This document shows, one piece after another, positions 546-63,734 of a stretch of DNA of 64,000 nucleotides (positions are counted from its first letter, which is position 1; each line of letters begins with the position of its first letter). Made by a program: the position numbers and the translations under genes. The stretch lies in contig JAUZTB010000062.1 of the NCBI GenBank assembly GCA_034780895.1, positions 7,700,494-7,764,493 of the forward strand. Reading direction: 5' to 3'. The DNA comes from Rhynchobatus australiae. Its lineage: Eukaryota. The notes below the pieces were generated by a model, which saw nothing but the letters and a program-made list of their open reading frames with translations, was not told where the DNA came from and made no database searches.

Positions 546-1554
546 TTCTGAGTGAAGTTATTAACACAAGGGATACCTTCCAATAAATATGCAAAACACA
601 TTCTGTGGTGAAGCAAGAGATTGAAGGAATTCAGATTCTGAACCCAATTGACAGAATCAGAGCTGTGCTTTGGCTTCACAAAACATGCTTTGAATAAAGT
701 ACAAAGATCACAGCTTGAAGAACTGAAGACATAGCATCATAGATTGTGGCTGTAAATATTTACAAAACTCAAAAAGAAATTTGCCTTTTGCCCATCCACA
801 TGTACTTACTTTAACGCTTGGTGAAATGTTGCAAGCCACTGGCTTACAACATCAGTTTAATTGAACTTCAGTGTTATGCTGCTAATGGGGGAAGATGAAT
901 TATTCCATTTCTACACCAGCCTATACTTGGTCATATAAATTGCTTTCAGCAACTTCTCAGATCACATTTGAAGTTCCTGAAGACAGAAATAAGAAGTTGA
1001 TTTCAAAAATAAGCGTGCCACAAAATCACCTTTGCAAGGGTTAAGATTACCCTTTTGGCTGTTGAAGACAATTAACCAAGTTTCTCCTTCAAGAAAGATT
1101 TTCCTTTTGAAACAGAAAGTCTTTATTTTTTGAAACTATGGAGACACCTTTGGTTTCACACTAGTAAACAAAGTATGGAAGGAGCTGTTTGACTTTCAGT
1201 CACGTGCTCTAATTAGTTTTCAACAGATATTAATACGAGGGTAAAAGAAAACAGAATTCACACATTTAGAAATGTTGTATCTGACCAATTCTCCCATAAC
1301 AGCTGTAGAGAATAGCAAAAGTGCTAGCTTTTTGCACTTGATCCAGTACAATGTCCTTGTTGTAATCCTGGAGCAGTGCACCGTGAACCTGGAAAAGCAC
1401 AAGTTTCTTTGCTGAGGGAGACAAATTATGCATCTAATTTCCACTAGAATTAAGTGATAATCAATTCTTTGAGCTACGTGTTCATAAATTCAAATCAGTT
1501 AGGAACATTCTAAATCAGTAAGCAACATTCTAATTTGGGCAAAAAAAAATCAAA

Positions 1555-1735
1555 AAGCTGCAGGTGCTGGAAATCTGAAATAAAACAGAGACTGCTGGAG
1601 ACATTCATCAGGTCAGGCAGCATTGGTGGAAGGAGAAAGAGTTAACATTTCAGGTTCTGCATAAAGGAATCTAACCATTTCTGCAGATGCTGCCTGACCT
1701 GCTGAATGTTTTCAGCATTTTCTGCTTTTAATTTC
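1555..1735. mobile_element. Penelope-like terminal repeat, fold-back (inverted) pair
   Basis: The left arm tgctggagacattcatcaggtcaggcagcat is the reverse complement, with mismatches, of the right arm atgctgcctgacctgctgaatgttttcagca. The same family recurs more than 10 times. Confidence 0.7.
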
Positions 1736-3560: not shown

Positions 3561-3564
3561 CTCC

Positions 3565-3880
3565 TAATGATCCCAAGTGCTTCACAGTCAATGAAGTATC
3601 TTTGAACTATAGGTACTAAGAAAATCCAATCGGAAGAATCTCCAAATTGTAAATAGATAACAGCCAAATCATCTGGTTTAGTGATGTTGGTCAAGCAATT
3701 AATATTGGCCAACTCTAAATGGGAATAAGTACAAGAAATGTGACGAATCTTGTGGTTCTATCTTCACTGCTTCCACTGACTGAATGTTTAAGTGAATGGA
3801 CTGAATGCAGCAATTCAGGTGCAGCCTGATGAAACCCACGCACATCTGCAGTACGAGAGCCTCAGTCTGGAACTCCACTG
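3565..3880 (-). mobile_element. DeuSINE (SacSINE1/AmnSINE1-like) remnant
   Basis: tcccaagtgcttcacagtcaatgaagtatctttgaa...atctggtttagtgatgttggtc...aatattggcca resembles the reverse complement of the Deu-domain SINE consensus as I recall it. Confidence 0.55.
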
Positions 3881-4639: not shown

Positions 4640-5200
4640 TTGGCATAGAGTACAAGAGTTGGGATATTGTGTTACAACAGTTGGTGAGACTGCACCTGGA
4701 GTATTGTGTGTTGTTCTGGACATCATACTGCAAGGAAGGATGCGGTTAAGCTAGAGAGGGTGCAGAGAACATTCACAAGCTGGAGGGCTCAAATTACAAG
4801 GAGATACCAGATAGGCTGAGGCTGTTTTCCCTGGAGCGAGGGAAGCCGAGGAGTAACTTACTGAGGTTTATAATACCATGAGGGGCATAGATAAGGTGAG
4901 CCAATGGTCTTTTTCCCAGGGCAAGAGAATCAAGAACTAGAGTGCATTGGTTTAAGGTGAAAGGGGAAAGATTTAAAGGGGGACCCGAAGGGCAAAATTT
5001 GTCATAGAGGATGGTGGATATATGGAAGAGCTGCAAGAGGAAGTGGTAGAGGAAGGTACAGTTACAACATTTAAAAAGACATTTGGACAGGTAAACGGAT
5101 AGGAAAGGTTTAGAGGGAGAGGGGCCAAACACAGGCAAATGGGACTAGCTAAGGAAGGCACAGGTTGGACTGAAGGGCCCATTTCTGTGCTGTGACTCCA
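4640..5200 (+). mobile_element. CR1-type LINE 3' end
   Basis: Decayed ORF2 C-terminus (LEYCV..W, LERVQR, RLRLFSLE), then a 3' UTR ending gaagggcccatttctgtgctgtgactc. Confidence 0.85.
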
Positions 5201-7949: not shown

Positions 7950-8250
7950 ATAGAGTAGCATATTTAAATTAATGACTAGTAACCTAAAGGCATGGATTAA
8001 TGACACAGATACAGAAGCTTATATCTCACTGTGGCAAGTGGGAAATTTAAAGTCATTTAATTTAATAATATGGAATAAAAAGATATTATCAGTAATGGTA
8101 ATCATGAAAATACCAAATTGTTGCAAAATCCCAGCGGGTTCACCATTACCCTTTAGGGAATTGAATCAGCTGTCTTTACCCAGGCTGGGCTACATGCAGC
8201 AATATGGCTAACTCTTAAATGTATCCCGAAATGATGGAGCAAGCAACAAT
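7950..8250 (+). mobile_element. Old tRNA-derived SINE (core ggttcac...ccctttaggga...ctggnctacatg)
   Basis: Shares its core with 37660-37880 and a fragment near 63320-63380. Confidence 0.5.
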
Positions 8251-8549
8251 TGTGTACCAGAGAACACAATGAGGAAATGTGCTAGTTCCCTACATTTATT
8301 AGATTGTAAGATGACCCAAAGTCTTCCATTTCCTCTTAAACTTTCCCCAAACCAAAGATTACAATAGGCAATGTTCTGATAAATACTTCAGCCAGGTTAA
8401 GTGCAGGAACTTGTTTCACACAAGATCCATAGGCCGATCTAAAACCAGTACCACACCTTGTATCAAAGGGAAAGTATGCACAAGTGGCTATACCCCATCT
8501 CTCAACATTCTTCATTATCACTTTAAATATTTCTTTTAATTTGTTCATT

Positions 8550-9055
8550 TTTGGGGATCAGAGAGTCATTAGCAAGGCCAAAATTTATTGCCCATCTCTA
8601 AATGCCCTTANNNNNNNNNNNNNNNNNNNNNNNNNNNNNNNNNNNNNNNNNNNNNNNNNNNNNNNNNNNNNNNNNNNNNNNNNNNNNNNNNNNNNNNNNN
8701 NNNNNNNNNNTTTATTGCCCATCTCTAAATGCCCTTAAGAACATGCTGGCTCACCACCACCTTGAAGTGCTGCAGTCCTTCTGGTGAAGACACTCCCTCA
8801 GTCCCACTGGAGAGAGAATTCCAAGAAATGGTGATACATGTCCACTGTTTTCCTCTTCCATGCACCCTAGCCCCTTTGTAGGAAAGTTGTGCTTAGGGAG
8901 GAAGAGTCGGAATAGCCAAGGCACGTAATAGCTGTGTATTTCTAACATGGTCCACACTGCGGCTACTGATTCGCCAATAAAAGGAGGGAATGGATACTTA
9001 GGGCAGCAATGAAGTACCAATCAAGCAGGCTGGTTTGTCCTGGATGGTATCACAA
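8550..9055 (-). mobile_element. LINE 3' part of the family with the gggcaataaa..ggccttgc tail (L2/CR1 group)
   Basis: gcaaggcc..atttattgcccatc...tgctgcagtccttctggtgaag is homologous to 56560-56690 (-) and 58540-58910 (+). Confidence 0.65.
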
Positions 9056-16734: not shown

Positions 16735-18550
16735 AAGGGCAGAAAAAAGATGAAATATGAAGGTAAGCTAGCCAATAATATAAAAGAGGATACCAGAAGT
16801 TTTTTTCAGATATATAAAGAGTAAAAGAGAAGCAAGAGTGGACATCAGACCGCTAGAAACTAATGTTGGAGTAGTAGTAATGGGGAACAAAGAAATAGCG
16901 AACGAACTGAACAAATATTTTGCATCAGTGGAAGACACCACCAACATGCCAGAAATTCGAGAGACACGGGGCAGAAGTGAATGTAGTCGCTATTACTAAG
17001 GAGAAGGTGCTTGGGAAGCTGAAAGGTCTGAAGGTGAACAAGTCAGCCAGTCCAGAAGGACTACACCNNNNNNNNNNNNNNNNNNNNNNNNNNNNNNNNN
17101 NNNNNNNNNNNNNNNNNNNNNNNNNNNNNNNNNNNNNNNNNNNNNNNNNNNNNNNNNNNNNNNNNNNCCACAGGGTTCTGAAAGAGGTAACTGAAGAAAT
17201 TGTGGAGGCATTAGTAGTGATCTTTCAAGAATCACTACTCAGGAATGGTTCCAGAGGACTGGAAAATCACAAATGTCACTCCACTCCAAGAAGGGAGGAA
17301 GGCAAAAGACAGGAAATAATAGGCCAGTTAGCCTGACTTCAGTGGTTGGTAAGATGTTAGAGTCCATTGTTAATGATAAGGTTTCAAGGTACTTGGAAGC
17401 ACATGATAAAATAGGCCAAAGTCAGTATGGTTTCCTTAAGGGGAGATCTTGCCTGACAAATCTATTGGAATTCTTTGAGGAAGTAACAGGCAGGATAGAG
17501 AGAGTCAGTGGATGTCATTTACTTGGATTTTCAGAAGGCCTTTGAGATGCTGCTGCACATGATGCTGTTAAACAAGATAGGAGTCCGTGGTATTACAGGA
17601 AAAGTACTAGCATGGATAGTAAATTGACTGGTAGTGTTGAGGAAGCAGGGAGTCTGCAGAAGGAGTTGGACGGGTTGGGAGAATGGTCAAAGAAATGGCA
17701 AATGGAATATAGCATAGGGAAGTATATGGTCATACACTTTAGTAGAAGGAATAATGGCAATAGACTATTTTCTAAATGGGGGGGATGGGGGAGAAAGAAT
17801 TCAGAAATTGGAGATGCAGGGGGACTTGGGAGTCCTAGTGCAGGATTTCCTAAAGGTTAACTTGCNNNNNNNNNNNNNNNNNNNNNNNNNNNNNNNNNNN
17901 NNNNNNNNNNNNNNNNNNNNNNNNNNNNNNNNNNNNNNNNNNNNNNNNNNNNNNNNNNNNNNNNNNNNNNNNNNNNNNNNNNNNNNNNNNNNNNNNNNNN
18001 NNNNNNNNNNNNNNNNNNNNNNNNNNNNNNNNNNNNNNNNNNNNNNNNNNNNNNNNNNNNNNNNNNNNNNNNNNNNNNNNNNNNNNNNNNNNNNNNNNNN
18101 NNNNNNNNNNNNNNNNNNNNNNNNNNNNNNNNNNNNNNNNNNNNNNNNNNNNNNNNNNNNNNNNNNNNNNNNNNNNNNNNNNNNNNNNNNNNNNNNNNNN
18201 NNNNNNNNNNNNNNNNNNNNNNNNNNNNNNNNNNNNNNNNNNNNNNNNNNNNNNNNNNNNNNNNNNNNNNNNNNNNNNNNNNNNNNNNNNNNNNNNNNNN
18301 NNNNNNNNNNNNNNNNNNNNNNNNNNNNNNNNNNNNNNNNNNNNNNNNNNNNNNNNNNNNNNNNNNNNNNNNNNNNNNNNNNNNNNNNNNNNNNNNNNNN
18401 NNNNNNNNNNNNNNNNNNNNNNNNNNNNNNNNNNNNNNNNNNNNNNNNNNNNNNNNNNTTGAAAAGGAAAAAACAAAAATCAGCCATGATCGAATAGCAG
18501 AGTAGACTCGATGAGCTGAATGGCCCGATTCTGCTCCCATGTCTTATGGA
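16735..18550 (+). mobile_element. CR1 LINE ORF2 (reverse transcriptase) remnant, frameshifted and gapped
   Basis: Translated motifs GNNRPVSLTSVVGKMLESIV, QYGFLKGRSCLTNLLEFFEEVT and VDVIYLDFQKAF. An internal deletion near 17630 removes the FADD region. The CR1 tail is at 18480-18550. Confidence 0.93.
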
Positions 18551-20782: not shown

Positions 20783-20987
20783 AAAAGCAAAAAAATTGCA
20801 GAGGCTGCAAATCTGAAAATCCTAGAAGTACTCAGCAGGTCAGGCAGCATCTGTGGAGAGAGTTAATGTTTCACATCGATGAACTATCATCAAATGCAAG
20901 GCAGGTCTGTAAAGCCAATTCTGTTTTGCTTTCTATGCATGCTACCTGATCTGCTGACCATTTCCAGCATTTTGTGCTTCCATTTCA
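20783..20987. mobile_element. Penelope-like terminal repeat, fold-back pair with decayed hammerhead core
   Basis: Arms tcagcaggtcaggcagcatc and atgctacctgatctgctga. Minus-strand TTGATGA...GAAACATTAAC at about 20860-20895. Confidence 0.65.
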
Positions 20988-23366: not shown

Positions 23367-23718
23367 GGGGCAACACAGTAGCATAGTGGTTAGCACAACG
23401 CTATTACAGCGCCAGCGATCGGGGGTCAATTCCCGTCACTGTCTGTAAGGAGTTTGTACATTCTCCTGCATCTGCGTGGGTTTCCTCTGGGTGCTCCGGT
23501 TTCCTCCCACATTCTAAAGACATACGGGTAGGTTNNNNNNNNNNNNNNNNNNNNNNNNNNNNNNNNNNNNNNNNNNNNNNNNNNNNNNNNNNNNNNNNNN
23601 NNNNNNNNNNNNNNNNNNNNNNNNNNNNNNNNNNTAGGTTAATTTGAGGTTTAAAATGGGCAGCGCGGACTCGTTGGGCTGGAAGGGCCTGTTACCACAC
23701 TGTAAATAAAAATTAAAA
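23367..23718 (+). mobile_element. V-SINE (HE1-like) with CR1-type tail
   Basis: tRNA-like head (A box tagcatagtgg, B-box-like gggtcaattcc), V domain gggtttcctctgggtgctccggtttcctcccaca, and tail gggctggaagggcctgtt. Interrupted by an N gap. Confidence 0.85.
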
Positions 23719-28155: not shown

Positions 28156-28959
28156 TCCAATGCATATTTAGTGATTTTAAGCATTTTGTTGATATCAGCT
28201 GTCTTCTGTGCAACTGCCAAAAAGCCAAATCAGGATCAATACCAATACACAATAATTTCTTATCATTAAAACTTACAATTACTTTAAATATAGATGGGGA
28301 GGGGTATGATGGTTGGAAATATGTGACTGTAAACACGTACAGACAAAAATATTGCCTGTGGGTTTGTGAGATGGCTCTAGATTAAAATTCCTACACTTCC
28401 GGACCCCAACATAATAAGTGGTGCCCTTGCCAAAATAAATGTTTGAAAAAAAATTAAAAGATACTGAGAATGTAATCTCCTGTGTCAAATTATCATTAAG
28501 AGAGCAGTTTTTTTTTCCCCCCGATGATGCAGTGTGCTGCAATCCATTATTTACAATATGGAAATCATTTGGTACATGTTAAATATATAATAACTGAGGT
28601 ATTGCACCAATGAAATAGCATCCCATACAGGAATTAAGAACAGAAGATGCAGATAATTGATCTTTTCTCCACTCCTGCTGAACAAGTCCACTGGTTTCAA
28701 AAGGTGCTGACAGTACTTCAGTGCATCACCTAAAATCTTACACCTTGTGCACAAGCCAATCAGGATTGGTAATCCATTTCAATTTTGAGGACTGTCATTG
28801 CACATCCAACTTAATCCTCACGCATAGCAAACTTTCTCACTATGCGGTCTCCCCTACATTGGTAAAACCAAAGAGATTAGGTGGACACTTTGTGGAAATT
28901 CTCTGTTCAGTCCACAAGGGTTATCTTGAGTTTAGTCAGGTCAGATTGACATCCTAAAA

Positions 28960-29310
28960 CATTGTGTTTTCTCTCTCCGCAGAAGCTACTTGACCTGCTG
29001 GGTTTTCCAGCATTCTCTTTCATTTCAGATTTCCACAATCTGTCATGTTCTATATCACAGAGTTCCCATATATTTTCCTCCTTCATCCTCTCCCTCCAGT
29101 TACATCTATTGCCATTAACAAGCCTTTGGAAGTCTCTCTTTACCAATACCATTCCACGCCATCCATTTCCTCTTGATTCCACCCTATCACAGAAAATCCC
29201 CCATGTGATCTCCACTCTTCTTCCCTTTCCGCAATGTAAAATATGCCTCATTTCTGGCATTTCCTAGCTCTGATGAAAGACTGACCTGCGCATTTCCAGC
29301 TTTTTTTTAA
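28960..29310 (+). mobile_element. Penelope-like element remnant (tandem terminal repeats)
   Basis: Arm ttgacctgctgggttttccagcat, a pyrimidine-rich spacer, then CTGATGA near 29270 and a second partial arm. Confidence 0.55.
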
Positions 29311-30249: not shown

Positions 30250-30410
30250 TGACACAAGAGACTGCATATGCTGGAAATCTGGAGTAACACACACAAAATG
30301 CAGGAGGAATTCAGTGGGTCAGGTCTCAGCCCAAAATGTCAACTGTTCATTTCCCTCCATAGATGCTGCCTGACCTGCTGAGTTCCACCAGTATTTTGTG
30401 TGAATTGCTC
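30250..30410. mobile_element. Penelope-like terminal repeat, fold-back pair
   Basis: cacacaaaatgcaggaggaattcagtgggtcagg pairs with cctgacctgctgagttccaccagtattttgtgtg. The centre tctcagcccaaaatgtcaactg is the 3' half of a hammerhead motif. Confidence 0.7.
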
Positions 30411-37107: not shown

Positions 37108-37183
37108 TGGAAAGCGCTTTTTCATAAGACTTCCCCATAGCGATAAAGTTTCTCAGGCTGGGATTAAACTGGTCCATAATGGT
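37108..37183 (-). CDS. BAIAP2: BAIAP2 coding exon 2 (TIMDQFNPSLRNFIAMGKSYEKALS, 76 nt)
   Basis: Acceptor ttttcatag|ACC and donor TCCA|gtaagt. Nearly identical to IRSp53 TIMEQFNPSLRNFIAMGKNYEKALA, and closer to it than to BAIAP2L1 ([25 protein letters not shown]). Phase 0 in, phase 1 out. Confidence 0.97.
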
Positions 37184-37880: not shown

Positions 37881-40019
37881 GTGTACAAAAAACATGCCTT
37901 TTCAACATACTTATATTTTCCTGCTATCCTCCAAGAGAATCATGTCAATTATGAAATTTAATCTGCCACAGCTCCACAGATACAACTTGATCATTGGGAT
38001 GTTTACAAATGCAGGTATTGATAACAACAGGACAATGATAATGTGGGTCAGTCAATTTTGCAGTGCTTGTCAGAAATTACCAGTTGGGTTCAATTAAGAT
38101 GAATTTAACTTCTCTTCTTATTAACTTCAATGGATTTTCATAGCTTTTGTTATACCCATTATCGTTAGTCAGTGCTCACTGATGAGTTAGATGCAATAAT
38201 TCCACAGTGAAACAGAAGTAATTACTCCCTACTATTATTAAACTGAATTCATCAAATATATGCTCACAATGAATTTGGCAGCTTTGGGAAAATAAATAGC
38301 ATGGACAAGTTTCAATCAGTAAATTTGACAGTAAAGGCAACTTTATGTTGACTAAAATGCTGATCAGCGGTTGATATTGCCACTCTTTGTAAGAGTCTTC
38401 TATGAATTCACTCTGCTGAACTCCATTTACTATTACAGCTGCTACAATCAACTACAGAACTGTGCAAACTACAAATGCTTAAGTATTAACTAAATAAACT
38501 GTCAAATTCAGTTATTAATTTAAAATCAATTCAGTAGTTATTCTAACATCTCACCTCCATTAGTCAAGTTTGAATACAATCAAGAGTTACACATCTTCAT
38601 ACCGATCAAAAGCAGTAATCAGTCCCTTTACAATGAGTGGCTATGAAAAGTTTGCTTCACTGCAGAATATTTGCTTGAAATCCACCCAACTCATTCTGAA
38701 GCATAAAAGTATAAATATTCAAATCCAAAGCATTGATTTCCATATAAAAGACACATTACTCTCTTCACTGCCCGATTTTCATCTTGCTAGAGCTTTTTGC
38801 TATGCAAGAAAGATTACTGTGTCCCCTTTATAGTGTTAATTGAAACACTTAATTGAAACATGAACATATATAATTAAGGGAGTTGAATACTTCCATGCTT
38901 TGCTTACACTAAGCATAGAACCGTCATACGACTGGCTGTCGCGAGAGTGGTAGGAAACATAGGTGAAAAATAAACAAACACAGAGCCTTTGACCAGCTAT
39001 GGTCAAATCAAATGAACGACATCAGCAAAATGTCTGTAATATGCCGAGGCTTGTCTGGAGAACCAGAATTCTGTACTATTGGTAAAGAAACAGGGCTGCA
39101 ATATAAACAACATCAGCTGACTAAAGATTCTTAATTCCCAAGGACATTATTAATGCAGAAGAGTCATCCAGTGGATTAATGATTGATATATCACATGTCT
39201 ACTCACCAGGATGCAAACTTAATAATGATTGGACAAGAAAGTAGTTTGAATGTATGCAGCGAGGAAAAAATGAAAGGCTTCTCAGAATTAGATGACTGAA
39301 TCAGCAGGTCCTGTGTACATATCCAACTACAAGGGAATATTTGCCAGAGGTGGTTGTACTTAGTTTAATGATCGGGGTGTGGGTTCACCACCTATAAAAG
39401 TAAGAGATTTGGCAAGGACATACAGAAGTATCAGAAGAAACCAAAAAGCGAACCAAGGAGACCTGAAAGGGCCATTAGAGGTGGATAAAACTAATAAGCT
39501 GCAGAAGATCATTGTTCCATGAACTGTCCATCCAATCTCAAGATGCTAGTATTTGTATAGCCCATGTTGTAAAAAAATTATTCAAGCAGCAGTTCACAAA
39601 TTATGATTTTGATACAATAAAATATCACTGCTCAACTAAAATAGTGCTACAACGAATCCACTGAAGAATCCCCTGAAGAGGGTATCCTGGACATCTCCCT
39701 ATTGGTTCCTGCATGCCGCTGGGCACGGCAGTGGTTTAAAGCAGCAGCAAAAGCACTTGCCCAACACAGAGATCAAAATTTAGCTAATTTTAGTGTTCCA
39801 CCATACTGCATTACAGGTTCATACAGCTACCATGTAATAATTATAATGACTTAGCTTTGATAGGTCAAAGACATCAAGTAAGTTAGTAATGATTAAACTG
39901 GCTCATAGTGAACCAGCCATTGGACTACTTCTGGTATTGTTTCAGATGGAACTTTACAACCAAGAAAGGAATGTTTCTGCAATTTCTCAAATATACAGTT
40001 TGACAGTGTTCATTAAGTG

Positions 40020-40803
40020 TTGGAAATTTGGGCAGAGAAATAGTAAATGGAGTTTAATCCAGACAAGTGAGAGGTCAAATGCAAGAGGATTCAACACAGT
40101 AAATGGCAGAGCATTAGGAGCATTGATGTACAATGAGATCTTGGGGTGTGTCCATAGCTCCCTGAAAGTGGCAACACAAAAAAAGCAAACAGCATACTTG
40201 CACTTAATTAGTATAAATGTTGGCAAGTCACATCGCAGCTGTATGAAACTTTGGTTAGACCATATTTGGGGTGTTAGGTGCATTTTTGGTCACGACACTA
40301 TAGCGAGGATGGAGGCTTTGGAGAGGATGCAAAAGAGGTTCACCAGGATGTTGCCTGGATTAAAACGCATTAGCTTTAAGGAGAGGTAGAACAAACTTAG
40401 ATTGTTTTCTCTGGAGAGTCAGAGGCTGAGGAGAAACCTGATAGGATGTTATAAAATTATGAGAGGCATAGATAGGGTAGATAGTCAGAATCTTTTTCCC
40501 AGGTTGGTAATGTCAAATAGCAGAGGACATAGCTTTAGGGTGACAGGGAGAAAGCTTAAAGGAGATGTGCAGGGCAATTTTTTCTAAACCACAGAGAGTG
40601 GTAAATGCCCAGAACACATTCCCAAGGAAGATGATGGCAGCAGATAAAATAGCAATGTTTAAGAGCACTTAGACAGACATATGAAGAGGTGGGAAAGAGA
40701 GGGATGTGGACTATGTGCAGGTACATGGGATGAGTTAGATTGACATCATGGTCAGCACAGGTATGGTGGTCCAAGGGGCCTATTCCTATGCTGTACAGTA
40801 TCA
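40020..40803 (+). mobile_element. CR1 LINE ORF2 C-terminus and 3' UTR
   Basis: ALERMQKRFTRMLPGL, FSLESQRLRRNLI..YKIMRGIDRVDSQNLFPR, and tail ggggcctattcctatgctgtac. Confidence 0.9.
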
Positions 40804-43800: not shown

Positions 43801-44625
43801 GACTGAACCGTATTGAAAAAGCAGAAGGCAGCAATACTCTGACACTAACTGCATACAGATTCATGAGCAGTCTTCAAAGGAACAATTCCCCAAGCCCTTC
43901 CTTTGTAAACAAACTTTCATTGCTGCAAAGCAACAAAAGACCAATAAAAATGCCAACACTACTCTTGTCTTAAGACTGAACCACACCAAAAGCCACATCC
44001 AACCTGATCTATGGGGAATAAAAAAATAAATTACTTTATAAAACAGAACGCAAAAAGTTATATGAAATTCCATCGTACCACCTAATGATATTGTTTCAAA
44101 AACATAAAAATGTAACGAATTATTGCCATATATCAGTTCAAAGCTTCAACGATCAAGCTGCCTTCGTGTTTCGTGACATCAATTGGACCCCACACCCAGA
44201 TCCGCAAACACACCTACCCTCCTCCCAAAAAACTCATCTACGTCCTTCCATCCCAACGCATCGCTCCTCCATAAGATTCACAAGAACATTCTAACTAAAC
44301 ATTTCAAAAAGTGCAGCCAAAAAAAAATAGTTTAAATGCACTTGCGAGCTGCTTAAACCTTTCCATGCCACAAAACAAAAGCCATAGTAAGACATGCTTT
44401 TTATCGTTTTAACAATGAGGGGCTACCACGCCGGGAAAGCAGGCTGGCTGGGCAATTCTAAAGAAAAACTCAGGCAAACCCCCCGATCAGAGCCAGAAAC
44501 TCAGCACCAAGTCGCCAGTCAGGTTGGACAACGGCCGAGAGACTCCGGGGAGGGAAGTTGGAGAAAGTTGGATGGGAGCCGGGGACAGGCCGGCCGGCTG
44601 GGGCTCGGCCGGTGGCCGCACTCAC

Positions 44626-44673
44626 CTTGTAGACGCCCTCGGTCATTCGGTGCATATCTTCCGTGCGAGACAT
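44626..44673 (-). CDS. BAIAP2: BAIAP2/IRSp53 coding exon 1 (MSRTEDMHRMTEGVYK)
   Basis: ATG at 44673 in context gcaaccATG (A at -3) inside a CpG island. It has 16 codons, then a phase-0 donor AAG|GTGAGT. The peptide resembles the IRSp53 N-terminus (human MSLSRSEEMHRLTENVYK). Confidence 0.95.
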
Positions 44674-44965
44674 GGTTGCTGAACTCTCCTCTCAACCTGC
44701 ACCGAGCAAATCACAAGAGTAATCTAAAAAAGTTACTCTGCGCCGCGAATAAAAAGCCTCTCTCGCCCCCTGAAACTTTTTTTTTCTCTCTCTCTCACAC
44801 ACACTTTCTTTTGACAGTAATCTCCAAGCCGCCCCCGCAACCAGCCGCGGTGCTTCTCCGCCAGCACCCGTCGCCTAGGAACGCGAGTGAGGAGGACTCC
44901 CGCCGACAACCTAACTCGGCGGCACAGGAGGAGTCGTCGAGCGGGCAGGGGGGGGGGGTCCTGCC

Positions 44966-45001
44966 ATTGGCCCGGCTGGCGGAATCCCGCGCGGCCATTG
45001 G
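44966..45001 (-). promoter_or_regulatory. Tandem CCAAT (NF-Y) boxes
   Basis: ATTGG at 44966-44970 and 44997-45001. Both read CCAATGGC on the gene strand and start 31 bp apart. Confidence 0.7.
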
Positions 45002-45019
45002 TTACACGCGACTAGCAAT

Positions 45020-45042
45020 CACCGCCCCCTCCCCCCCCTCCC
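45020..45042 (-). promoter_or_regulatory. GC box (Sp/KLF) and G-rich tract
   Basis: CCGCCCCCTCCCCCCCCTCCC on the + strand, which gives GGGGCGG plus G-runs on the gene strand. Confidence 0.6.
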
Positions 45043-45075
45043 TTTGGAGTAGCGGTAGGTTGAGTCGGCACTCGT

Positions 45076-45083
45076 TGACGTCA
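45076..45083. promoter_or_regulatory. Full palindromic cAMP response element (CRE)
   Basis: TGACGTCA with its CpG intact, inside the promoter island. Confidence 0.75.
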
Positions 45084-45889
45084 CGGCCAACACTCCTGGG
45101 CTCCTGGAAGATTTGCAGCCCAGCAAGTAGCAAAGTCTTTTTTAAAATCATAAAAAAAGAACGCAAACTATTTCCATAGCAACCAGTTAAAACTGTGTTA
45201 GAAATCCCCTTCGCATGTACAAGACTGTGCACCAAATACGTAACATNNNNNNNNNNNNNNNNNNNNNNNNNNNCAAACGTAGTTTTTTCACTGGTGGTCA
45301 TTTAGATATACTTTTGAAGCATGCATTGAACATTCATGGAGGGGAAAATAATTATTACAAATCAATCCAGTGTGAGCTCATCTGTGGGCATGATGAATCA
45401 CTCGTAACCATCGTAGACTCAGATGCTTAAGGATGACTATCCCAGCCTCTACTTTATGTTAATGCTATTCCAAACTAATCACCATTATGATTTACTGCGA
45501 ATTCTCAGTCCAAAAAGGCAGATTGCAGTTTGTGGTAGTACTCTTTAAATCATGATATATGGTTTGCTGCTACAGCAAATTAATGCAAGGGTTTTTCCTC
45601 CTGCAAGTTATTAATTTAATTTTCTTGATTTGCTAAATAGAAGTGGTAAAAGCCCAAATCTCCTATTCCATGGCTCCCTCTTCAGGGAAACTCCTCTATT
45701 TTCTTTTAGTGACAAAAGGAGTACCATTTGTAATTTCACATAACTTACTTTTCCATAAAACAATCTCTGTATCTTTCAATGGTTTGCAGTTAGAATAATC
45801 CCCATTTGTAAAATAAATGCTGACATGGGAAATATGGTGGTATTTTTCCCTTCGTTTTTTATTGCTTTTGATGTACTTTTAAAGGATGC

Positions 45890-46669: not shown

Positions 46670-46940
46670 TCTAATGTACAGTGTTTAAAATAAATTCTTC
46701 AACTGACTGACTAGTTTTCACCACACCTTACAGTCTTGATCAACCTGTTCCCAATCGTTAGTATCAATGTTGCAGAACCTCTTTGTTGATTTTGGAACTT
46801 TCTGTTAACCTCTCTTTGGTTTTCACAAATGCTGCCTAAACCAGGTGGTTCTCTGTCATTCTAACCACATAATCTGACAATCTCAGTCATGCCAATAATG
46901 CTGACAGTTTGCATCCTTACATGATGCAGGATTTCTGTGT
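46670..46940 (+). repeat. Direct repeat copy A (~270 bp)
   Basis: Aligns with 47717-47996 (ccacaccttacagtcttgatcaacctgttcccaat ... catccttacatgatgcaggatttctgtgt). Confidence 0.9.
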
Positions 46941-47517
46941 ATCATTAGTCTGAGACAGATTTCATGGCAATGGTTGAATGATAAGCAGCCAAGTTTAGAT
47001 ATTTCCTTAAAAGGAAGAAGGAAAAACGGGATGGTATGCCCAAAATTCTTTCTCAAGGACACTATGATCCTACAATCAAGAGCAGTAATGGGCAGAGTTG
47101 TTTGTGGGTTATTTGTTCATATGTTCCAAACTTAGAATTGTCTCTCAGTATGAAACTTAGTGAAGGACATACATGTACATGGTAATACTAAACCTTCTCA
47201 ATCTTTAACTTTCTTCTTGAAAATAAGAAAAAGGATTGGAACAGATGGTTTTGAAAGAACATTTTTAGAACTCATTTGGGCAAAAACTGCAGTGATGTTA
47301 ATTGACGATCATTCTCTTAGTTTAATAGATTACAGTCTACTAGTTTATCAGGTTAAGCAATGTTTATAAAGATGTTATTATCGGGATAAGGGTCATGGTC
47401 TCAAGATAAGACAAAGGATACAAAGTCACCTCTTCAGGAGAGGAAATTCCTTCAGTCACTGGGTTGTAGATCTCCGAAACTGGAGGATGGTGGAAGCTCA
47501 GTTACTGACAATCTGTA

Positions 47518-47650
47518 TTCAGTCCCGATGCAGGGTCACGACCTGAAATATCAATCATTCCTTTGCCTCCACAAACACTGCTCAACCCACTGAGTTCCTC
47601 CAGAAGTTTGTCTTTTGCTCTAGATTCCAGCATTTGCATTCTCTTGTATC
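47518..47650 (+). mobile_element. Penelope-like terminal repeat with decayed hammerhead motif
   Basis: cagtcCCGATGCAgggtcacgacctGAAAtatc followed by the arm ctgagttcctccag...agattccagcat. Confidence 0.65.
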
Positions 47651-47716: not shown

Positions 47717-47996
47717 CTAATGCACTGTGTTTCAAAGAAATGTTTCAACCTACTGTCTAGTGTGCACCACACCTTACAGTCTTGATCAACCTGTTCCCAA
47801 TTGTAAGTATCAATGTTGCAGAACCTCTTTGTTGATTTCATTAGCTTCTTGTACACCTCTTTTGGTTTTCACAAATGCTGCGTAAACTATCGGTAACTAG
47901 GTGGTCCTCTGTCATTCTAACTACATAATCTGACAATCTCAGTCATGCCAATAACGCTGATGGTTTGCATCCTTACATGATGCAGGATTTCTGTGT
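47717..47996 (+). repeat. Direct repeat copy B
   Basis: Diverged copy of 46670-46940 with scattered substitutions and a short insertion near 47888. Confidence 0.9.
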
Positions 47997-48019
47997 AAGT
48001 CTAAGATAGAAGCTCGCCT

Positions 48020-48183
48020 GACCTTCTTATTCTGGCTTCTGCCCTCTTCCTTCCAGTCCTGATGAAGGGTCTCAGCCCAAAACGTCGACTGTTTATTTCC
48101 CTCTATTGATGCTGCCTGACCTGTTGAGTTCCTCCAGCACTTTGTGTGTGTTGCTCCAGATTCCAGCATCTGCAGATTCTCTT
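48020..48183 (+). mobile_element. Penelope-like terminal repeat
   Basis: Hammerhead motif followed by gatgctgcctgacctgttgagttcctccagcac...gattccagcatctgcag. Confidence 0.75.
48054..48091 (+). ncRNA. Minimal type-I hammerhead ribozyme motif (G12 mutated to A)
   Basis: CAGTC [stem I] CTGATGA A GGGT-CTCA-GCCC [stem II] AAAA (for GAAA) C GTC^ GACTG [stem I']. CAGTC and GACTG are exact complements. Confidence 0.7.
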
Positions 48184-49659: not shown

Positions 49660-49786
49660 TAAAAAAACTGCAGATGCTGGAAATCTGAAATAAAAACAGA
49701 AAATGCTCAAGATACTCAGCAGAGCAGGCAGCATCTGTGGAAAGAAAAACAGAGTTAATGTTTCAGGTCCAAGACCCTTCAACAGA
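49660..49786 (-). mobile_element. Penelope-like terminal repeat with hammerhead-like motif
   Basis: Minus strand CTGTTGA AGGGTCTTGGACCT GAAA CATTAACTC followed by the family arm. Confidence 0.65.
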
Positions 49787-50509
49787 TATTTCAAAAGCAA
49801 GAGCATCAAAGCAAAGTTTTAACAAAAATAACAATAGTTCTTTGTTACACCCAAGGCAAGGCATTGGCTAAGATGTATGTTCTGGTGGACAATTCCTTTG
49901 CTCTGTTTGATTTCCTAAAGTTGATTTGTAATTTATCCTCTCCAGCATTTATTTTCTTCACATCATAATTGAATAGGGAATTTTGCTTCCTCCCAAAAAG
50001 AGGTGATGTCAAGCATTATTATAGATCCACATAACTAATGCTTGGGTTTCTAGGTGGAGACAGTTTTCTTTGCTTGTTTAGGCAGTTAAGCAACCCAGAG
50101 CTTGACTGTGCACAGTCAGTAAACATTTAAAACTAGACTTGATGCAAAAAACATGTATCGTCATGAAGGGCATTTTGGACTTGGCCACCATCACCAATAG
50201 GGTGGAAGCTGATACAGATAGTCATTACAGACCAAAGAAAGCAGCTAAATTACACACTGTATTCATTGCACTGTTAGTGTGCTTTACGCATGACAGATTA
50301 TAACAAGCAGCACGCATTGTATCCCAGAATTAGACGTTGCCTATTCTACTTCTATTGGCATTTCTGTAAAAATGCTCTTGTGATTACAATGGGCTATTTT
50401 GAGTTCTGTCTTCATTTCTGAGGTCTATTTCACTTCAGAAGTTGTCGGGTGCCTTCTCAATGCAGGGCTTGTGGCACCCAGAGCCTGTTGTTGATTTTCC
50501 TGTATGTTA

Positions 50510-50524: not shown

Positions 50525-50791
50525 TGGTGAACTTCTCCCATTCTCACACACCAAACATGTAAGCTCTTCTGACTGGACTAGTTTCCATAATGATTTAGCC
50601 TGGGGTGACAGTTAGGGATGAACCAACCTATCATCACTTCAGTAGGGTATATTGTTGGGTTACAGTTCAGAGTTTCAGAAGTTGTTGTGTGAAAGCAGTG
50701 CAGACAGGGTGGCAGATTTAATTCAATGACATGGCAGCTCTTTTATTTTTCGTTTTATAATTTAGCGCAACTCATGTCGTGCATTAGTTTC

Positions 50792-51482
50792 AAGCCAAAA
50801 GCAAACTGCTGGAGGAATTCAGCGGTTGAAACAGGTCGACATTTCAGGTCATAACCCTGCATCAGGACTGAGAGTGTAGAGGTAAGATAGCCAGTGTAAA
50901 GAGGTAAGAGGGAGGGGTGAGACAGGGGCTGGTAGGTGATAGGTGGAACCAGGTGAAGTGGAGGACGATGGGTAGATGGAGCCAGGTTGGGGAGAGGTAT
51001 GTTTAGAGGCAGGGGTAAGGGTGGGGATGGGTGATAGGTGGACACAGATAAGGGAAAAAAATGGGTAGTTGGAGTCGGGTGAGGGAGGGGCAAGGTGGAG
51101 ACAGAAGCTGGAAGATGATAAGTAGGACCAGATAAGGGAGGGATGATGGGCAGATGGGACCAGATAGGGGAAGGGATAGGTAGACTGAGCCAACAGAGGA
51201 GAAACCCAGGTGGATGGGTATGTGGGTGGTGGGTAAATGTTAAAAGGAAAGGTGAACAAAGGGAGAGAGAACCTAGGTGGACCAGCAGGAGCAGGAAAGG
51301 ACACCAGGGGTGTGAGTTTCCTGAAATTGGAAAATTCAATGTTGAATTAGGTTGTAGGCCACCTAAGTGGAATATGAGGTGTTTTCGTTAACCCCTTGCC
51401 ACCACAGATCCTGCTTGACCTGCCAAGTTCCTCCAGCAGTTTGGTTTTTAATCCAAATCCAATATCTACAGTCTCTTGTGTC
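50792..51482 (-). mobile_element. 5'-truncated Penelope-like retroelement (GIY-YIG C-terminus, pyrimidine-rich 3' region, hammerhead, inverted terminal repeat)
   Basis: Minus strand 51386-51320 encodes KHLIFHLGGLQP/FNIEFSNFR with one frameshift, like the end of PLE GIY-YIG endonucleases. A hammerhead-like motif lies at 50835-50870 and an inverted arm at 51395-51482. Confidence 0.75.
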
Positions 51483-52280: not shown

Positions 52281-53339
52281 TCTGTCATATAGAACCTGGT
52301 CAAAGTTACAGAGCTCTGCATCGGTAAGGTGCTCTATTTAAAATGGTTACATTCCAGCAGAACATCAAAATACACGTAACAGCCACTTATATTTACCCCT
52401 TACCCACCTGAGCCCAAGATCAGGAAGTGTAATTTCTCTCTACGGAGAACGAATAAGGCACTCAATAGTAAGGCAGACTGTGAAAACGCCTAGTGCTGGG
52501 TAACAAATGTTTTGCCGGGTTGAATTCCCTAGTTCCTGCCTATACACTGGAGTACCATCAGGCTTGAGGGGAATCTTTTAGCAAGCCCATTCCACTGATT
52601 GAGATGTTCCATTTGGTTATTTTCTGAATGCTGCTCAGAGCCAAGTTTTGTGCATGTCTTTCCATTCCCACCCCTTGTTTACTGCCAACCAGCTAATGCT
52701 CTACTCATTCTGTTATGCNNNNNNNNNNNNNNNNNNNNNNNNNNNNNNNNNNNNNNNNNNNNNNNNNNNNNNNNNNNNNNNNNNNNNNNNNNNNNNNNNN
52801 NNNNNNNNNNNNNNNNNNNNNNNTACGTTATTTTAAAAATTGCTTTTCAAATTTATTGCAACATAAACTAGAGGAACATTTTTATAAGATGACATGGTGT
52901 GGTACCTTTATGTATATCCGACATACAATTAATCATGGTCGAAACAAAAAAATGTTTATTTAAAAAAACCTGCTCAACCTATTAAACTCTCCGGCAAAGT
53001 ATCTGCTTTCTCCCTCTCTGTGAGCTCCACTCGTCCAACCTCACATCCGGCAACATCGCTCCCTGACCTCAAGAGCAAAAACAAGCAAACCTTCAGCACC
53101 CTTGGGGAGAGTGTATTTCACACAAAATTTAATTTACCTGGACCTTCAGTAGAAGGGGATTGATTTGCAAACTTTATATTGCAAATATACAGTCCTGAAT
53201 TTAAAATTGTAAATTGTTTTGCAAAATATTTGGGCAAATAAAAGCAAAAAGGGAGAACTAAGTTAATTAAAGTCTTTTAACAAATACTTGGTGGTCAATC
53301 CAACCAAAATTTGACCTGATGCAGCAATTTCCCCCCAAA

Positions 53340-53868
53340 AAACAGAAAATGCTGGAAATACTCAACAGATCAAGCAGTATCTATGGATACGAACAGTGTT
53401 GGTGTTTCAGGTGAAGAACTTTAACTCAGTTTCTCTTTCCACAGATACTGCTTAATCTGTTGAGTGTTTCCAGCATTTTCCCTTTTTATTTCTGCATTTT
53501 TGATTCACAGCAATTTCCCAATCTAATGCAAAAGCCCTGTGTTGCAGCTATATGGAAATCTGTGGATAAAATATTTCTGGAAATGCTCAGCAGATCAGCT
53601 GGCATTTGTAGAGAGAGGATCAAGGCAATAATCCTTCAAGAGAAATATTCCAATGTAACGCAAACACTTCACTCTGTTTCACTTTCCACAGATGGTGTTN
53701 NNNNNNNNNNNNNNNNNNNNNNNNNNNNNNNNNNNNNNNNNNNNNNNNNNNNNNNNNNNNNNNNNNNNNNNNNNNNNNNNNNNNNNNNNNNNNNNNNNNC
53801 TGTTTCACTTTCCACAGATGGTGTTTGACCTAATAAGTATTTCCACAATTTTCTGTTACCATTTCTAA
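53340..53868. mobile_element. Two adjacent Penelope-like fold-back repeats
   Basis: gaaaatgctggaaatactcaacagat pairs with atctgttgagtgtttccagcattttc (53340-53500). A second pair lies at 53550-53868. Confidence 0.7.
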
Positions 53869-54189: not shown

Positions 54190-54280
54190 CAGCAAAAAAC
54201 AAACTGCTGGAGGAACTCAGCGGGTCAGGCAGCATCTGTGGAGGCAGAGGGATGGTCGACATTTCGGGTCGAGACCCTGC
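54190..54280 (-). mobile_element. Penelope-like terminal repeat, low divergence
   Basis: ctgctggaggaactcagcgggtcaggcagcatctgtgg; minus strand GCA GGGTC-TC-GACCC GAAA T GTC GAC. The 5' part of the core is truncated. Confidence 0.7.
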
Positions 54281-54964: not shown

Positions 54965-55110
54965 AATATATAAAAATACAGGAAATGCTCTCAACAGTTC
55001 AGGGAAAGAGAACAGAGTTAACATTGTTGGTGATGACCTTTAAATATTAACTTTGTCTCTCGAAAAATACCGTCCAACCTGCTGAATAATTCAACTTCTT
55101 ATTTTCATTT
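54965..55110. mobile_element. Decayed Penelope-like fold-back
   Basis: ggaaatgctctcaacag...agagttaacatt ... attaactttgtctc...acctgctgaa. Confidence 0.45.
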
Positions 55111-55154
55111 ATCCTGCACCTTTCACATCTCCTTCAGAATGGTCAAATGTGCAC

Positions 55155-55615
55155 ACAGCTGGAAAGGGCGCAGGAGAGATTCACAAGGACGTTGCCGGGA
55201 CTGGAGGGCCTGAGTTATAAGGAGAGACTGGATAAACTGGGGCTTTTCCCCTTGGAATCTAGGAGGCTGAGGGGTGACATTCTGGGAGTATATAAAATCA
55301 GGAGGGGCATAGAGAAGGTGAATGGTCAAAGTCTTTTTCCCAGGGTAGGGGAGTCTAAAACTAGAGGGCATAGATTTAAGGTGAAAGGACCTGAGGGGCG
55401 GCCTTTTCACACAGAGTGTGGTGGGTCTGTAGAATGAGCTGCCTGAGGAAATGGTAGAAGTGGGTACAATTACAACATTTTAAAAGACATTTCGATAGCT
55501 ACGTGTACAGGAAAGATACGAGTCAAATGCAGGCAAATGGGACGAGCTCAGGTAGGCAACTTGGTGGGCATGTACAAGTTGGGCCAAAGGATCCATTTCC
55601 ATGCTGTATGGTCCA
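55155..55615 (+). mobile_element. CR1 LINE ORF2 C-terminus and 3' UTR
   Basis: LERAQERFTRTLPGLEGLSYKERLDKLGLFPLESRRLRGDILGVYKIRRGIEKVNGQSLFPRVGESKTRGHRFKVKG. Confidence 0.92.
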
Positions 55616-56559: not shown

Positions 56560-57860
56560 CAATGGAGTCGCTGGCTTGGCCAGCATTTATCGCCCATCCC
56601 TATTTGCCCCTGAGAAGGTGGAGGTGAACCACCTTTATGAACTGCTGCAGTCCTTCTGTTGAAGGTCGTTCCACAGTGCTGCCCCAAGCTGATTCTAGGA
56701 CTTAAACCTAGAAATGATGATAAGATATTTATTAGTTGCATGTACATCAAAACACACAGTGAAGTGTGTCTTCTTGCATTACTGAGAATGTGTTGGGGGC
56801 AGCCCATAAGTGTCGCCATTCTTCTGGAGCCAACATAGCACGCCCACAGCTCCTAACTTGTACATCTTTGGAATGTGGGAGGAAACTGGAGCACCCGGAG
56901 GAAACCCACGCAGACACGGGGAGAACATAAAAAACTCCTTACCGACAACAGCAGGAATTGAACCCAGGTCGCTGGCACTGTAATAGTGTCACACTAACCG
57001 CTACACTAAGTCAGGAGCTGATATTCCCAAGTGTNNNNNNNNNNNNNNNNNNNNNNNNNNNNNNNNNNNNNNNNNNNNNNNTATCACTGGAGTAGCCTTG
57101 GCAAGAAGCTGTGGCTTACTTTGTGGATAGAACACACTACAGCTCCCATACACAGTAGAGATGATGCTTGGTGTGGTGGCCAGGTGTCAATCAAGTGGGC
57201 ATCTTTATCTTATATGGCGTCGAGCATCTAGAGCATTGGAGTTGCACTCATCCAGGCAAACAGAGTGTACTCCATCACTCTCCTGACATGCCTTGAGGAT
57301 GCTGGAGAGGTTTTGGGATGTCAGGAGGTGAGCCATTCGCACAGGACATCTAACTTCTAACCTGCTTTGTTGCCACAACATTTATATGGCTGGTCCAGTT
57401 GACTTTCTGGTCAATCGTGAACCCCCGGGATATTGATGGTTGGTGACTCAGTGATGATAACATCATTAAATATGAAGGTTGGGTGGCTAGCCTTTCTCTC
57501 GTTGAAGTGGTGCCAATGTTACTTACCATGAATCAGCATATACCTATATTTCATCCGGATCCTGCTTTAAGAAGGCATGGACTCCGTCATTGGCTAAGGT
57601 GTCGCAATGATCAGTGAACGTGCCACTTCTGGCCTTATTATTGGAAGGAACATCATTGATTAAGCAATTGGAGATGGTTGAGATGAGGACACTGCCCTAA
57701 GGAACTCCTCTGGTGATGTACAGGGATGAGGATGACATACCCCAACAATCACAACCTCCTTCCTTCATGTGAGATAACATTCCAACTGCGAATGTGATTT
57801 CCCCCTTGAAGCCCATTGACTTCAGTTTTACTTTGACTCCTCGGTACCACATTGGTGTGA
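56560..57860 (-). mobile_element. LINE (L2/CR1 group) RT C-terminus and 3' end, interrupted by a V-SINE
   Basis: Minus-strand remnants TESPTINI/TIDQKVNWT and VRRVMEYTLFAWM. 3' tail gggatgggcgataaatgctggcc. Confidence 0.75.
56719..57008 (-). mobile_element. V-SINE with L2-like tail
   Basis: Reverse complement closely matches 63436-63734 in the head, V domain and gatgtacatg..actaataaa tail. Confidence 0.88.
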
Positions 57861-57879: not shown

Positions 57880-58515
57880 GGAAAAATGTTACTGCATAGA
57901 AAGTTCAGAAAAGTTCACTAGACTAAAACCTGGAAATGGTGGGTTTGTCTTAAGAGAGTGGTTGGAAAGGCTATGTTTATATTCACTCGAGTTTACAAGA
58001 CTTGACAGAAACATATAAGATTCCTTCTCTGTAACTAAAAATTAACTTCTCTCTTTCCCAATTCTGATGAAGGGCCTCAGACCTGAAACATTAGCTCTGT
58101 TTCTCTTTCCACAGATGTTGACCGACCTGCTGAGTGTTTCCAGCATTTTCTGTTCTTATTTCAGATCCAGAGGGGTCTTGATGGGGTGGGATGTGGAGGG
58201 GATGTCTTCCCTTGAGGGAGAATCTAAAACTAGGGGTCACTGTTTAGCAATAAGTAATCACAAACTGAAAAAGAGATGAGGAGATTTTCTTTCTCTTGGA
58301 GGGTTGTGAACCTTTGCAACTCTCTTCCTCAGAGTGTGGTTGAAGAAGAGTCTTTGAATATTTTTAAGTCAGAGGTAGAAAGATATGCAAGGAGGTAAAA
58401 AAGTTACCAGGGCTGGACAGGAATGACAAGCTGTTATCACAATTAGATCAATCATGATCTTACTAAATTACAGAGTAGGCTTGAGGGACCAAGTCTCCTC
58501 TTGCTCCTAACTTGT
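57880..58515 (+). mobile_element. CR1 LINE 3' end, split by a Penelope repeat
   Basis: acatataagattcc| ... |agaggggtcttgatgggg resumes at about 58170. Tail ggcttgagggacc...ttgctcctaactt. Confidence 0.8.
58025..58170 (+). mobile_element. Penelope-like terminal repeat with hammerhead motif
   Basis: CTGATGA (58064-58070) AGGGCCTCAGACCT GAAA (58085-58088) CATTAGCT, then the arm gacctgctgagtgtttccagcattttc. Confidence 0.7.
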
Positions 58516-60789: not shown

Positions 60790-61040
60790 TACAACACAGG
60801 AAGGCATTCAGCCCTATGGGTTCATGCTGGCTCCCATTTCCCTGCAATCCTGCAATTTATTCTCTCCCACATGCCCATCAAGCATCTTGCCACCTCTTTA
60901 CACCAGGGGCAATTTACAGTGGCCCATTAACCTACCAGCATATCTTGGGATGTGGGAGGAAACTGGAGCTCCTGGAGAAACCCAAGGCATTCACAAAGAC
61001 AACTTGAAGATTCCCCACCCAAACCCAGGTCACTGGAATT
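60790..61040 (-). mobile_element. V-SINE variant with CR1-like tail
   Basis: tgtgggaggaaactggagctcctggagaaaccc (reverse V domain), preceded by aggcattcagccc (reverse CR1 tail). Confidence 0.65.
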
Positions 61041-62099
61041 AACAAGGGCAATGCCTTTGAATATTACAATGTTATCCCCTGGCAGTGCCTGGCCATTTTC
61101 AAAGAAGCTTTAATGAATGTTTTTTTAATTATGCAATATACTGCTAACTAATGATTCTGGTTGGAAAATAAACAAAGGTATTATAACCAAGTTAGTTTTT
61201 GCCATAATGAATATCCTCTCTCACTTTCAGTATATATAAAACAATATTTTTATTTTATGCAAATACATTTTTGTAAGTATCTCAGTAAGAATCTTTCACA
61301 TCAGTGGTGGTGCATTTCAGGATTTTACTGCCCAAACCAGCTTTGCCATCTTTTCCTGCTTTCCTAGTCAAATGTTTCCACTGCCCCTGTCCTGGGTCCT
61401 TCCTCAAATCACTACCAGTTGGGCATTTTTCATCTTTTATTTTTGTTCGTCTGTTTTCAAAACCACCTTAAACCTAATCATCTTATGACCACCATCAGCC
61501 ACGTGTTTCCCCACAGAAACACACACCACTTAACAGGCATCAATTCCCAGCACGAGAACCAGAGATAGCTCCTTGCTTTGTGAGTAGAATTATACAATTC
61601 ACATAGATCTCCTGCACTGTATGCATTGTAGGAATAGTTCCCTTTCCTTGGCTTTTATTTTTTTACCCCCCCCTGGGGGCAATTTACAGTGGCCCATTAA
61701 CCTACCAGCATATCTTGGGATGTGGGAGGAAACTGGAGCTCCTGGAGAAACCNNNNNNNNNNNNNNNNNNNNNNNNNNNNNNNNNNNNNNNNNNNNNNNN
61801 NNNNNNNNNNNNNNNNNNNNNNNNNNNNNNNNNNNNNNNNNNNAGCATGAGAGAGGGTACAGAGAAGGCATACAAAAATCTGCCAGGGATGAAAGATTTG
61901 ATTTGAGGTAAGAATATGCAAAGTAGGAGAACACCATCCAGCCCTTGAAGCCTGCTCCACCAGTCTTCTGCCTCAGCACCACATTACTGCACTACCCCCA
62001 AATGCCTTGATTCCCTTCATATCCAGAAATCTGTGCTTTGAATGAATCCAATGACTGGAAGATTGGTCAAATCGAGGGAATTTGGTTTGTTAGATTGGT

Positions 62100-63435: not shown

Positions 63436-63734
63436 GGCACGGTAGTGTAGCGGTTAGCATAACGCTTTACAGTGCCAGTGACCCAGGTTCAATTCCCGCC
63501 ACTGTCTATAAGGAGTTTGTACGTTCTCCCCGTGTCTGCGTGGGTTTCCTCCGGGTGCTCCGGTTTCCTCCCACATTCCAAAGACGTACGGGTTAGGAAG
63601 TTGTGGGCGTGCTATGTTGGTGCCGGAAGCGTGGCGACACTTGCGGGCTGCCCCCGAGAACACTCTGCGCAAAAGATGCATTTCACTGTCTGTTTCGATG
63701 TACATGTGACTAATAAAGAGATCTTATCTCATCA
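63436..63734 (+). mobile_element. Full-length, CpG-retaining V-SINE with L2-like tail
   Basis: A box tagtgtagcgg, B box GGTTCAATTCC (63486-63496), V domain gggtttcctccgggtgctccggtttcctcccaca, and tail gatgtacatgtgactaataaag. Confidence 0.9.

Follow-up and report, generated by a model that had tools for sequence, protein, structure and literature searches.

A 38-nt motif at positions 48054-48091 (+) of the window, i.e. the whole 64,000-nt stretch of Rhynchobatus australiae DNA (contig JAUZTB010000062.1) analysed here, raises the question of whether a hammerhead ribozyme is present, in what kind of element it resides and whether this copy could still cut. The motif is identified here, with high confidence, as a minimal hammerhead of type I, situated in the 3′ pseudo-LTR of a 5′-truncated Penelope-like element (PLE), in a copy that is likely inert, having lost G12 at a CpG and having no intact partner nearby.

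Architecture and state of the motif

Direct reading of the motif returned the letters given in the original prediction, including the 5-bp stem I, the intact CUGAUGA (C3-A9), the one extra A, the short stem II and the helix III cut down to the palindrome ACGU. Stem II consists of 4 bp including one U.G pair, and AAAA is present instead of GAAA, followed by ACGU and C17. The parts of the motif are as follows.

48054-58/48087-91 (+): stem I (direct reading, covariance model and RNAfold)
48059-65 (+): core
48066 (+): extra A
48067-70/48075-78 (+): stem II
48074 (+): second CpG change, in loop II
48079 (+): G12 changed to A at a CpG (pattern counts in relatives)
48082-85 (+): helix III palindrome
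48086 (+): N17

RNAfold closed stems I and II with −12.7 kcal/mol (z −1.97), and 8 of 200 shuffled sequences equalled this stability. When a generic minimal-hammerhead descriptor was applied with one core mismatch allowed, the motif was the sole match in the window, with a background of one match in 40 Markov-resampled windows. With zero mismatches the descriptor had no match in the window or in 79 10-kb regions of the genome; it misses subfamilies C and D (see below) because it requires a 4-bp stem I. An Rfam scan of the window at E ≤ 10 returned no hammerhead family. Compared with the core of the published minimal hammerhead ribozymes (min-HHRs), i.e. CUGANGA, GAAA, A15.1-U16.1 and H17, the copy has A at G12, and three further min-HHR features are present: an extra nucleotide after A9, G10.1-C11.1 and a palindromic 15.2-16.2. 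The published feature set matches the fold, and the minimal type-I architecture that had been proposed was thereby upheld. The motif is a real but ordinary, decayed PLE min-HHR of an already known kind.

G12 is described as the general base of the hammerhead (PMC6155905, available text). Its loss had been attributed to CpG decay, and this was borne out by an unbiased pattern search of the subfamily to which the copy belongs, in which a hand count over the first 100 listed of 2004 matches gave CG 32, CA 36, TG 28 and other 4 at the G12 site. Counting by script in 30 sequences gave 9, 11, 9 and 1, respectively. Since CG, CA and TG are symmetrically represented, G12 was present in the source and was lost by CpG decay. 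Exact matches to the intact core numbered 363 elsewhere in the genome (control 0), and with these matches and the symmetric decay at G12 the source of this subfamily, A1, has the complete min-HHR core. Divergence outside CpG was about 7.5 % (25 of 30 loci usable), and over 85 nt the copy itself departs in six places from the majority sequence of 30 relatives. Inheritance of G12A from a master, suggested by A in 26 of the 30 nearest BLAST relatives, was rejected as a result of ascertainment, with which the unbiased pattern disagrees.

The sole neighbour on the same strand within 1 kb, at 47518, is itself broken. It was ruled out as a dimer partner: it lies on the same strand 536 nt upstream and is a decayed C-type copy. 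Because G12 is mutated at a CpG and no intact partner is nearby, the copy is, judged from its sequence, very likely inert.

The Penelope-like host element and its abundance

A covariance model was built from 73 rows, including the motif at 48054. The original prediction had listed six related loci in the window, five of which were recovered with this model at E ≤ 7e-5 (47518, 49749, 50830, 54250 and 58057), whereas the sixth, at 20860-20895, had no model match at E ≤ 5 and was found by its 3′ tail (E 3e-14). The two half motifs reported near 29270 and 30325 scored weakly with the model (E 0.41 and 0.45), and 30322-30410 was 88 % identical by blastn. Two pairs of tail fragments were absent from the original list. 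The copies in the window are listed below.

1549..1734 (both strands): inverted pair of tail fragments, newly listed
20787..20986 (minus 20787-20895, plus 20911-20986): inverted pair of old copies, hammerhead heavily decayed
28800..29305 (+): old copy with a decayed GIY-YIG piece near 28800-28920 (E 0.012), an internal tail fragment near 28965 and half a hammerhead at 29263-29305
30256..30410 (minus 30256-30323, plus 30322-30410): inverted pair, the plus copy with only the 3′ half of the hammerhead
47518..47645 (+): subfamily C copy with C at core position 9, also changed at U4 and helix III
48013..48183 (+): 5′-truncated PLE 3′ end (pseudo-LTR) of subfamily A1 carrying the motif, running as far as the assembly gap at 48184
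49665..49792 (−): subfamily B copy that has lost A6 (blastn and covariance model)
50790..51390 (−): longer subfamily C copy, hammerhead motif at 50830-50872, tail internally deleted
51392..51480 (+): inverted 3′-end fragment directly adjoining the copy at 50790-51390 on its 5′ side, a typical PLE inverted 5′ copy
53338..53492 (both strands): inverted pair of tail fragments, newly listed
54190..54280 (−): copy truncated within the core, CUGAUG missing (blastn and covariance model)
58057..58170 (+): subfamily B copy, core letters all present, helix III palindrome and stems disrupted

The copy at 48013..48183 has 92-95 % identity with 39 other scored genomic copies and itself matches back to about 48013. 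The longer copy at 50790..51390 contains, in addition to a pyrimidine-rich UTR, a decayed endonuclease C-terminus at 51320-51384, a match that is weak alone (E 0.016) and is supported by relatives.

A PLE origin had been proposed for the motif and was supported by a fixed 3′ end, a GIY-YIG C-terminus upstream and inverted pairs in relatives. The right end, about 160 nt after 48030, was common to all 30 nearest loci and the left ends differed, as is characteristic of a retroelement copied from its 3′ end. Longer copies contain the pyrimidine-rich UTR and, further upstream, the C-terminus of the GIY-YIG endonuclease. The number of loci with this C-terminus upstream on the hammerhead strand was 6 of 30 for A loci with an intact core, 2 of 20 for A2, 4 of 20 for B, 2 of 30 for mixed loci and none of 20 for short C loci. 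A first look with the C-terminal peptide gave 33,480 candidates genome-wide, and five of its six database matches were from rays and skates. Among tail matches less than 300 nt apart (n = 30), 21 were head-to-head inverted, 4 convergent and 5 direct; the predominance of head-to-head neighbours fits the inverted 5′ copies typical of PLEs, so that both this trait and 5′ truncation are present.

The coding part was read from several loci. Locus L144 has the linker, endonuclease, UTR (with one 62-N gap) and an intact hammerhead in that order. Locus L129 has a reverse transcriptase (RT) with YIDD (PF00078, E 0.0012, under the curated cut-off), a CX4CxxC linker and a GIY-CxxC-YIG-like region, with a frameshift and with a 3′ end that falls in a gap. 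A PF01541 match under the cut-off (E 0.0039) was found at L147, and an RT upstream of a C-type core at L300 (E 1e-77). Thus, a GIY-YIG endonuclease with CxxC between its motifs is present upstream of the pseudo-LTR, the motifs being read directly and the Pfam scores under cut-off, and the CX2-5CxxC zinc-finger linker between RT and endonuclease is present as CX4CxxC in L129. By this linker, as defined in PMC8557442 (available text), the predicted protein places the element with Neptune or Nematis. Twenty 10-kb regions of this gappy assembly held no full-length intact ORF flanked by two pseudo-LTRs, so that RT and hammerhead are connected by way of the endonuclease that the loci have in common. 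At L064, two copies on the same strand lie 2.2 kb from each other with N between them. Long 'open frames' of 1032, 613 and 609 amino acids were rejected as full-length elements because they consist of N-filled gaps.

The high copy number that had been proposed was supported by an estimate of about 403,000 element ends genome-wide. A profile of the non-ribozyme tail had 143 matches in the 79 10-kb regions, 18 in the window and none in reversed sequence, which scales to about 403,000 (bootstrap 330,000-477,000) in 2.23 Gb, with regions taken at round positions on large contigs, small contigs unsampled and inverted pairs counted twice. This corresponds to an estimated density of about one PLE remnant per 5 kb. 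All core letters were kept in 14 of 136 tail matches having 55 nt upstream.

Subfamilies and variant cores

Clustering on the tails alone gave at least four groups, the cores of which were read by pattern searches. Subfamilies A1 and D have canonical cores; in D, N7 is A, N17 is U and stem I has 3 bp. In subfamily B, a hand count gave U at 2.1 in 97 of 100 listed sequences, with A (77) or G (19) at 1.1, and G.U or A-U at 10.1-11.1. Subfamily A has C-G at pair 2.1-1.1 as against U-A or U.G in B, which amounts to one compensatory swap. Stem I has 3 bp in subfamily C, as in D, and loop II is UUCG in most C copies (L219-L238).

Covariation in stems I and II, the fourth of the extra features published for min-HHRs and one by which the original prediction was to be judged, was found as this one clear stem I swap between subfamilies and was otherwise thin. 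Among 71 distinct rows, pair 2.1-1.1 was C-G in 39, U-A in 16, U.G in 6 and unpaired in 10. The covariation score of 0.181 (0 of 500 shuffles) represents about one subfamily event, and the search patterns fixed most stem columns.

Position 9 in subfamily C was C in 85, T in 8, A in 4 and G in 3 of the first 100 listed of 2121 matches. With 88 tail columns and 100 of 120 loci the subfamily came out as a single clade (96/81), and it made up 35-37 of 136 tail-detected copies. When 30 loci were examined, a core was found in 22, and endonuclease or RT was upstream in 13 of 20 long copies with a C-type core, indicating that subfamily C descends from an ORF-bearing RNA. In subfamily A2, U4A was found in 74 and T in 23 of the first 100 listed of 3158 matches; on the 88 tail columns the U4A copies did not form one clade (3 changes).

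The changes in the window copies had been regarded as lesions, mostly from CpG decay, in a family with a probably active consensus. This applies to the loss of G12, whereas at 47518 and 50870 the C that follows CUGAUG is inherited; since C at 9 and U4A are fixed subfamily states, several of the apparent lesions in the window are inherited and not decay. The putative active consensus would fit some subfamilies only, C at 9 and U4A being found in two large ones.

Core changes are described as usually costing hammerhead activity, with some natural variants staying active (PMC3088659, available text). The C-at-9 lineage (roughly 100,000, about a quarter of tail-detected copies) and the U4A lineage may have spread with cores that do not cut, in which case they would constitute a natural knock-out, and self-cleavage would be dispensable for Penelope retrotransposition in vivo. 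This suggestion is tentative and is held at somewhat less than even. If C-type cores do cut, CUGAUG-C-A would be a new natural core with an extra nucleotide between G8 and A9. No activity test for C at 9 or for U4A was found in the literature searched, outside of which lies the 2017 work of Lunse, Weinberg and Breaker, which reportedly describes dimeric PLE hammerhead variants with a short stem III, cleaving as dimers.

Cleavage, related systems and alternative explanations

Min-HHRs have already been described from the pseudo-LTRs of metazoan PLEs (Cervera and de la Pena 2014, PMC4209133), and the available text suggests that they cleave weakly and as dimers only. The hammerhead of the anole PLE needs the protein of the element, and insertion in vitro occurs without cleavage (PMC11167929, available text). 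By analogy with such work, a source element in partial tandem would be transcribed, and two hammerheads would pair through ACGU, possibly with help from the element's protein, the cut falling on the 3′ side of position 17. Reverse transcription would start at the 3′ end and break off early, giving short, single copies subject to later decay under DNA methylation, and a single truncated progeny could not supply paired motifs.

RNA-seq of a relative contained 10,575 of 11.05 M, 13,597 of 12.9 M and 26,025 of 12.9 M reads that matched the repeat at 85 %, i.e. 0.1-0.2 % of the reads, in both orientations. Reads did not pile up with begins or ends at the predicted site, which is a weak test with fragmented libraries and a threshold of one-fifth of depth. 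A subfamily D copy likewise had reads in both orientations and no pile-up of ends in this equally weak test. The repeat reads look like read-through in host transcripts. Elsewhere in the genome, two intact-core subfamily D hammerheads occur in tandem 76 nt apart (L154/L155, G000:C1:2828230 and 2828306) with a hairpin-rich linker, as a natural dimer substrate or a nascent retrozyme-like repeat. The double-hammerhead fold of this tandem lies 12.4 kcal/mol above its minimum, which argues against a strong role.

The ray motifs resemble the min-HHRs of PMC4209133 in having no helix III loop, a palindromic 15.2-16.2, an extra nucleotide after A9, G10.1-C11.1 and a short stem I, and in occurring mostly as single dispersed copies from truncated PLEs, with several consensus families per genome. 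Cartilaginous fish are not named in the parts of that text and supplement that were compared, and our literature search for a hammerhead ribozyme in an elasmobranch found nothing. About 400,000 element ends were estimated here compared with 2,000-9,000 descriptor matches there, which are different measures, and U3-A8 is the only core change named in the available text, whereas C at 9 and U4A were found here. As in the ray element, the hammerhead of the Poseidon PLE of Anolis carolinensis lies in the pseudo-LTR, and RNA-seq ends are absent from its cleavage site (Frangieh et al. 2024, PMC11167929, available text); Poseidon is without a linker zinc finger, whereas the ray element has one, and protein-dependent cleavage has been demonstrated for Poseidon, the ray element being known from sequence. 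Neptune and Nematis EN+ PLEs (Craig et al. 2021, PMC8557442, available text) share with it the RT, the CX2-5CxxC linker, the C-terminal GIY-YIG with CxxC, the 5′ truncation and the inverted 5′ copies. Animal non-LTR retrozymes (Li et al., bioRxiv 10.64898/2026.07.22.740005, available text) also have a type-I hammerhead from PLE pseudo-LTRs, and one of nine natural dimers cleaved in that study. They form tandem unit repeats, each with a hammerhead, whereas truncated ends of variable length are found here, the 76-nt tandem being the one local exception.

Why PLEs keep a barely active ribozyme is a standing question, the published in vitro activity being low and the one reconstituted PLE having inserted without need of cleavage. 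The copy at 48054 itself adds nothing to this question, which becomes testable with short RNAs through the sister subfamilies, canonical or with fixed core changes, each having thousands of recognisable copies. The hammerhead could be vestigial genome-wide, with its fold retained for protein binding, as part of a promoter, or by descent alone, and the element spreading without cleavage. This is supported by the amplification of large lineages having C at position 9 or U4A, by the anole PLE, in which hammerhead mutations left insertion in vitro unaffected and no RNA-seq ends lay at the site (PMC11167929, available text), and by the absence of an end pile-up in the weak RNA-seq test. However, A1, B and D keep each core letter and vary at N7, N17, loop II and one stem I pair, which are the positions a hammerhead tolerates, and variant cores can remain active in nature (PMC3088659, available text). 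A genome-wide vestige is regarded as a substantial possibility, though on balance doubtful.

The short copies might instead be an independent non-autonomous retrozyme or SINE multiplying as small circular RNA, given that most copies are shorter than 300 nt, that at one place (L154) two motifs with intact cores form a 76-nt tandem and that retrozymes derive from PLE pseudo-LTRs and are reported in one chondrichthyan (bioRxiv 2026.07.22.740005, available text). This is improbable: there is no fixed 5′ end or unit length, the 5′ ends grade into UTR and ORF, the window is without a tandem array of the unit, and close neighbours are inverted in 21 of 30 cases and direct in 5 of 30. A chance resemblance to a hammerhead would agree with the lack of an Rfam hammerhead match and the fold z of only −1.97, but is hardly credible beside one descriptor match in 40 shuffled windows, 363 exact intact-core copies and a location in a PLE pseudo-LTR, in which motifs of this kind are to be expected. 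It is also very improbable that the copy has been co-opted to regulate the neighbouring IRSp53/BAIAP2-like gene. Although it lies 3.4 kb upstream of the start codon, proximity to a gene is expected with one copy per 5 kb, and the copy lies beyond the coding span in the opposite orientation, is without G12 and has decayed in the ordinary way. The preferred reading remains that of a decayed PLE min-HHR.

The first two coding exons of the IRSp53/BAIAP2-like gene are at 44626-44673 (−) and about 37110-37183 (−) (PDB match, E 0.003), and a CpG island lies near 44400-45150. Leftwards, the window probably consists mostly of introns of this gene; the motif, 3.4 kb upstream and opposite, is thus outside its coding span. 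A local direct duplication (46671-46941 and 47717-47997, about 1.05 kb apart, 84-94 % identical) lies directly upstream of the motif copy. Of the 115 ORFs in the window, the 100 longest were compared with Pfam, and a LINE-type RT piece was the only match. LINE RT fragments are located at 17195-17857 (+) (PF00078, E 4.7e-6), 4866-5160, 39850-40547 and 55090-55558, and are presumably CR1-like. Several 100-N gaps (e.g. 8584/8711 and 53674/53800) have identical short stretches on both flanks, which suggests scaffolding overlaps. A second dispersed repeat family with 73-100 % identity, which we take to be a shark/ray tRNA-derived SINE, occurs at 23379-23529, 56795-57008, 60906-61014, 61676-61752 and 63467-63655; the repeats at 60906 and 61676 are identical over 77 nt beside a gap and are possibly an assembly duplicate.
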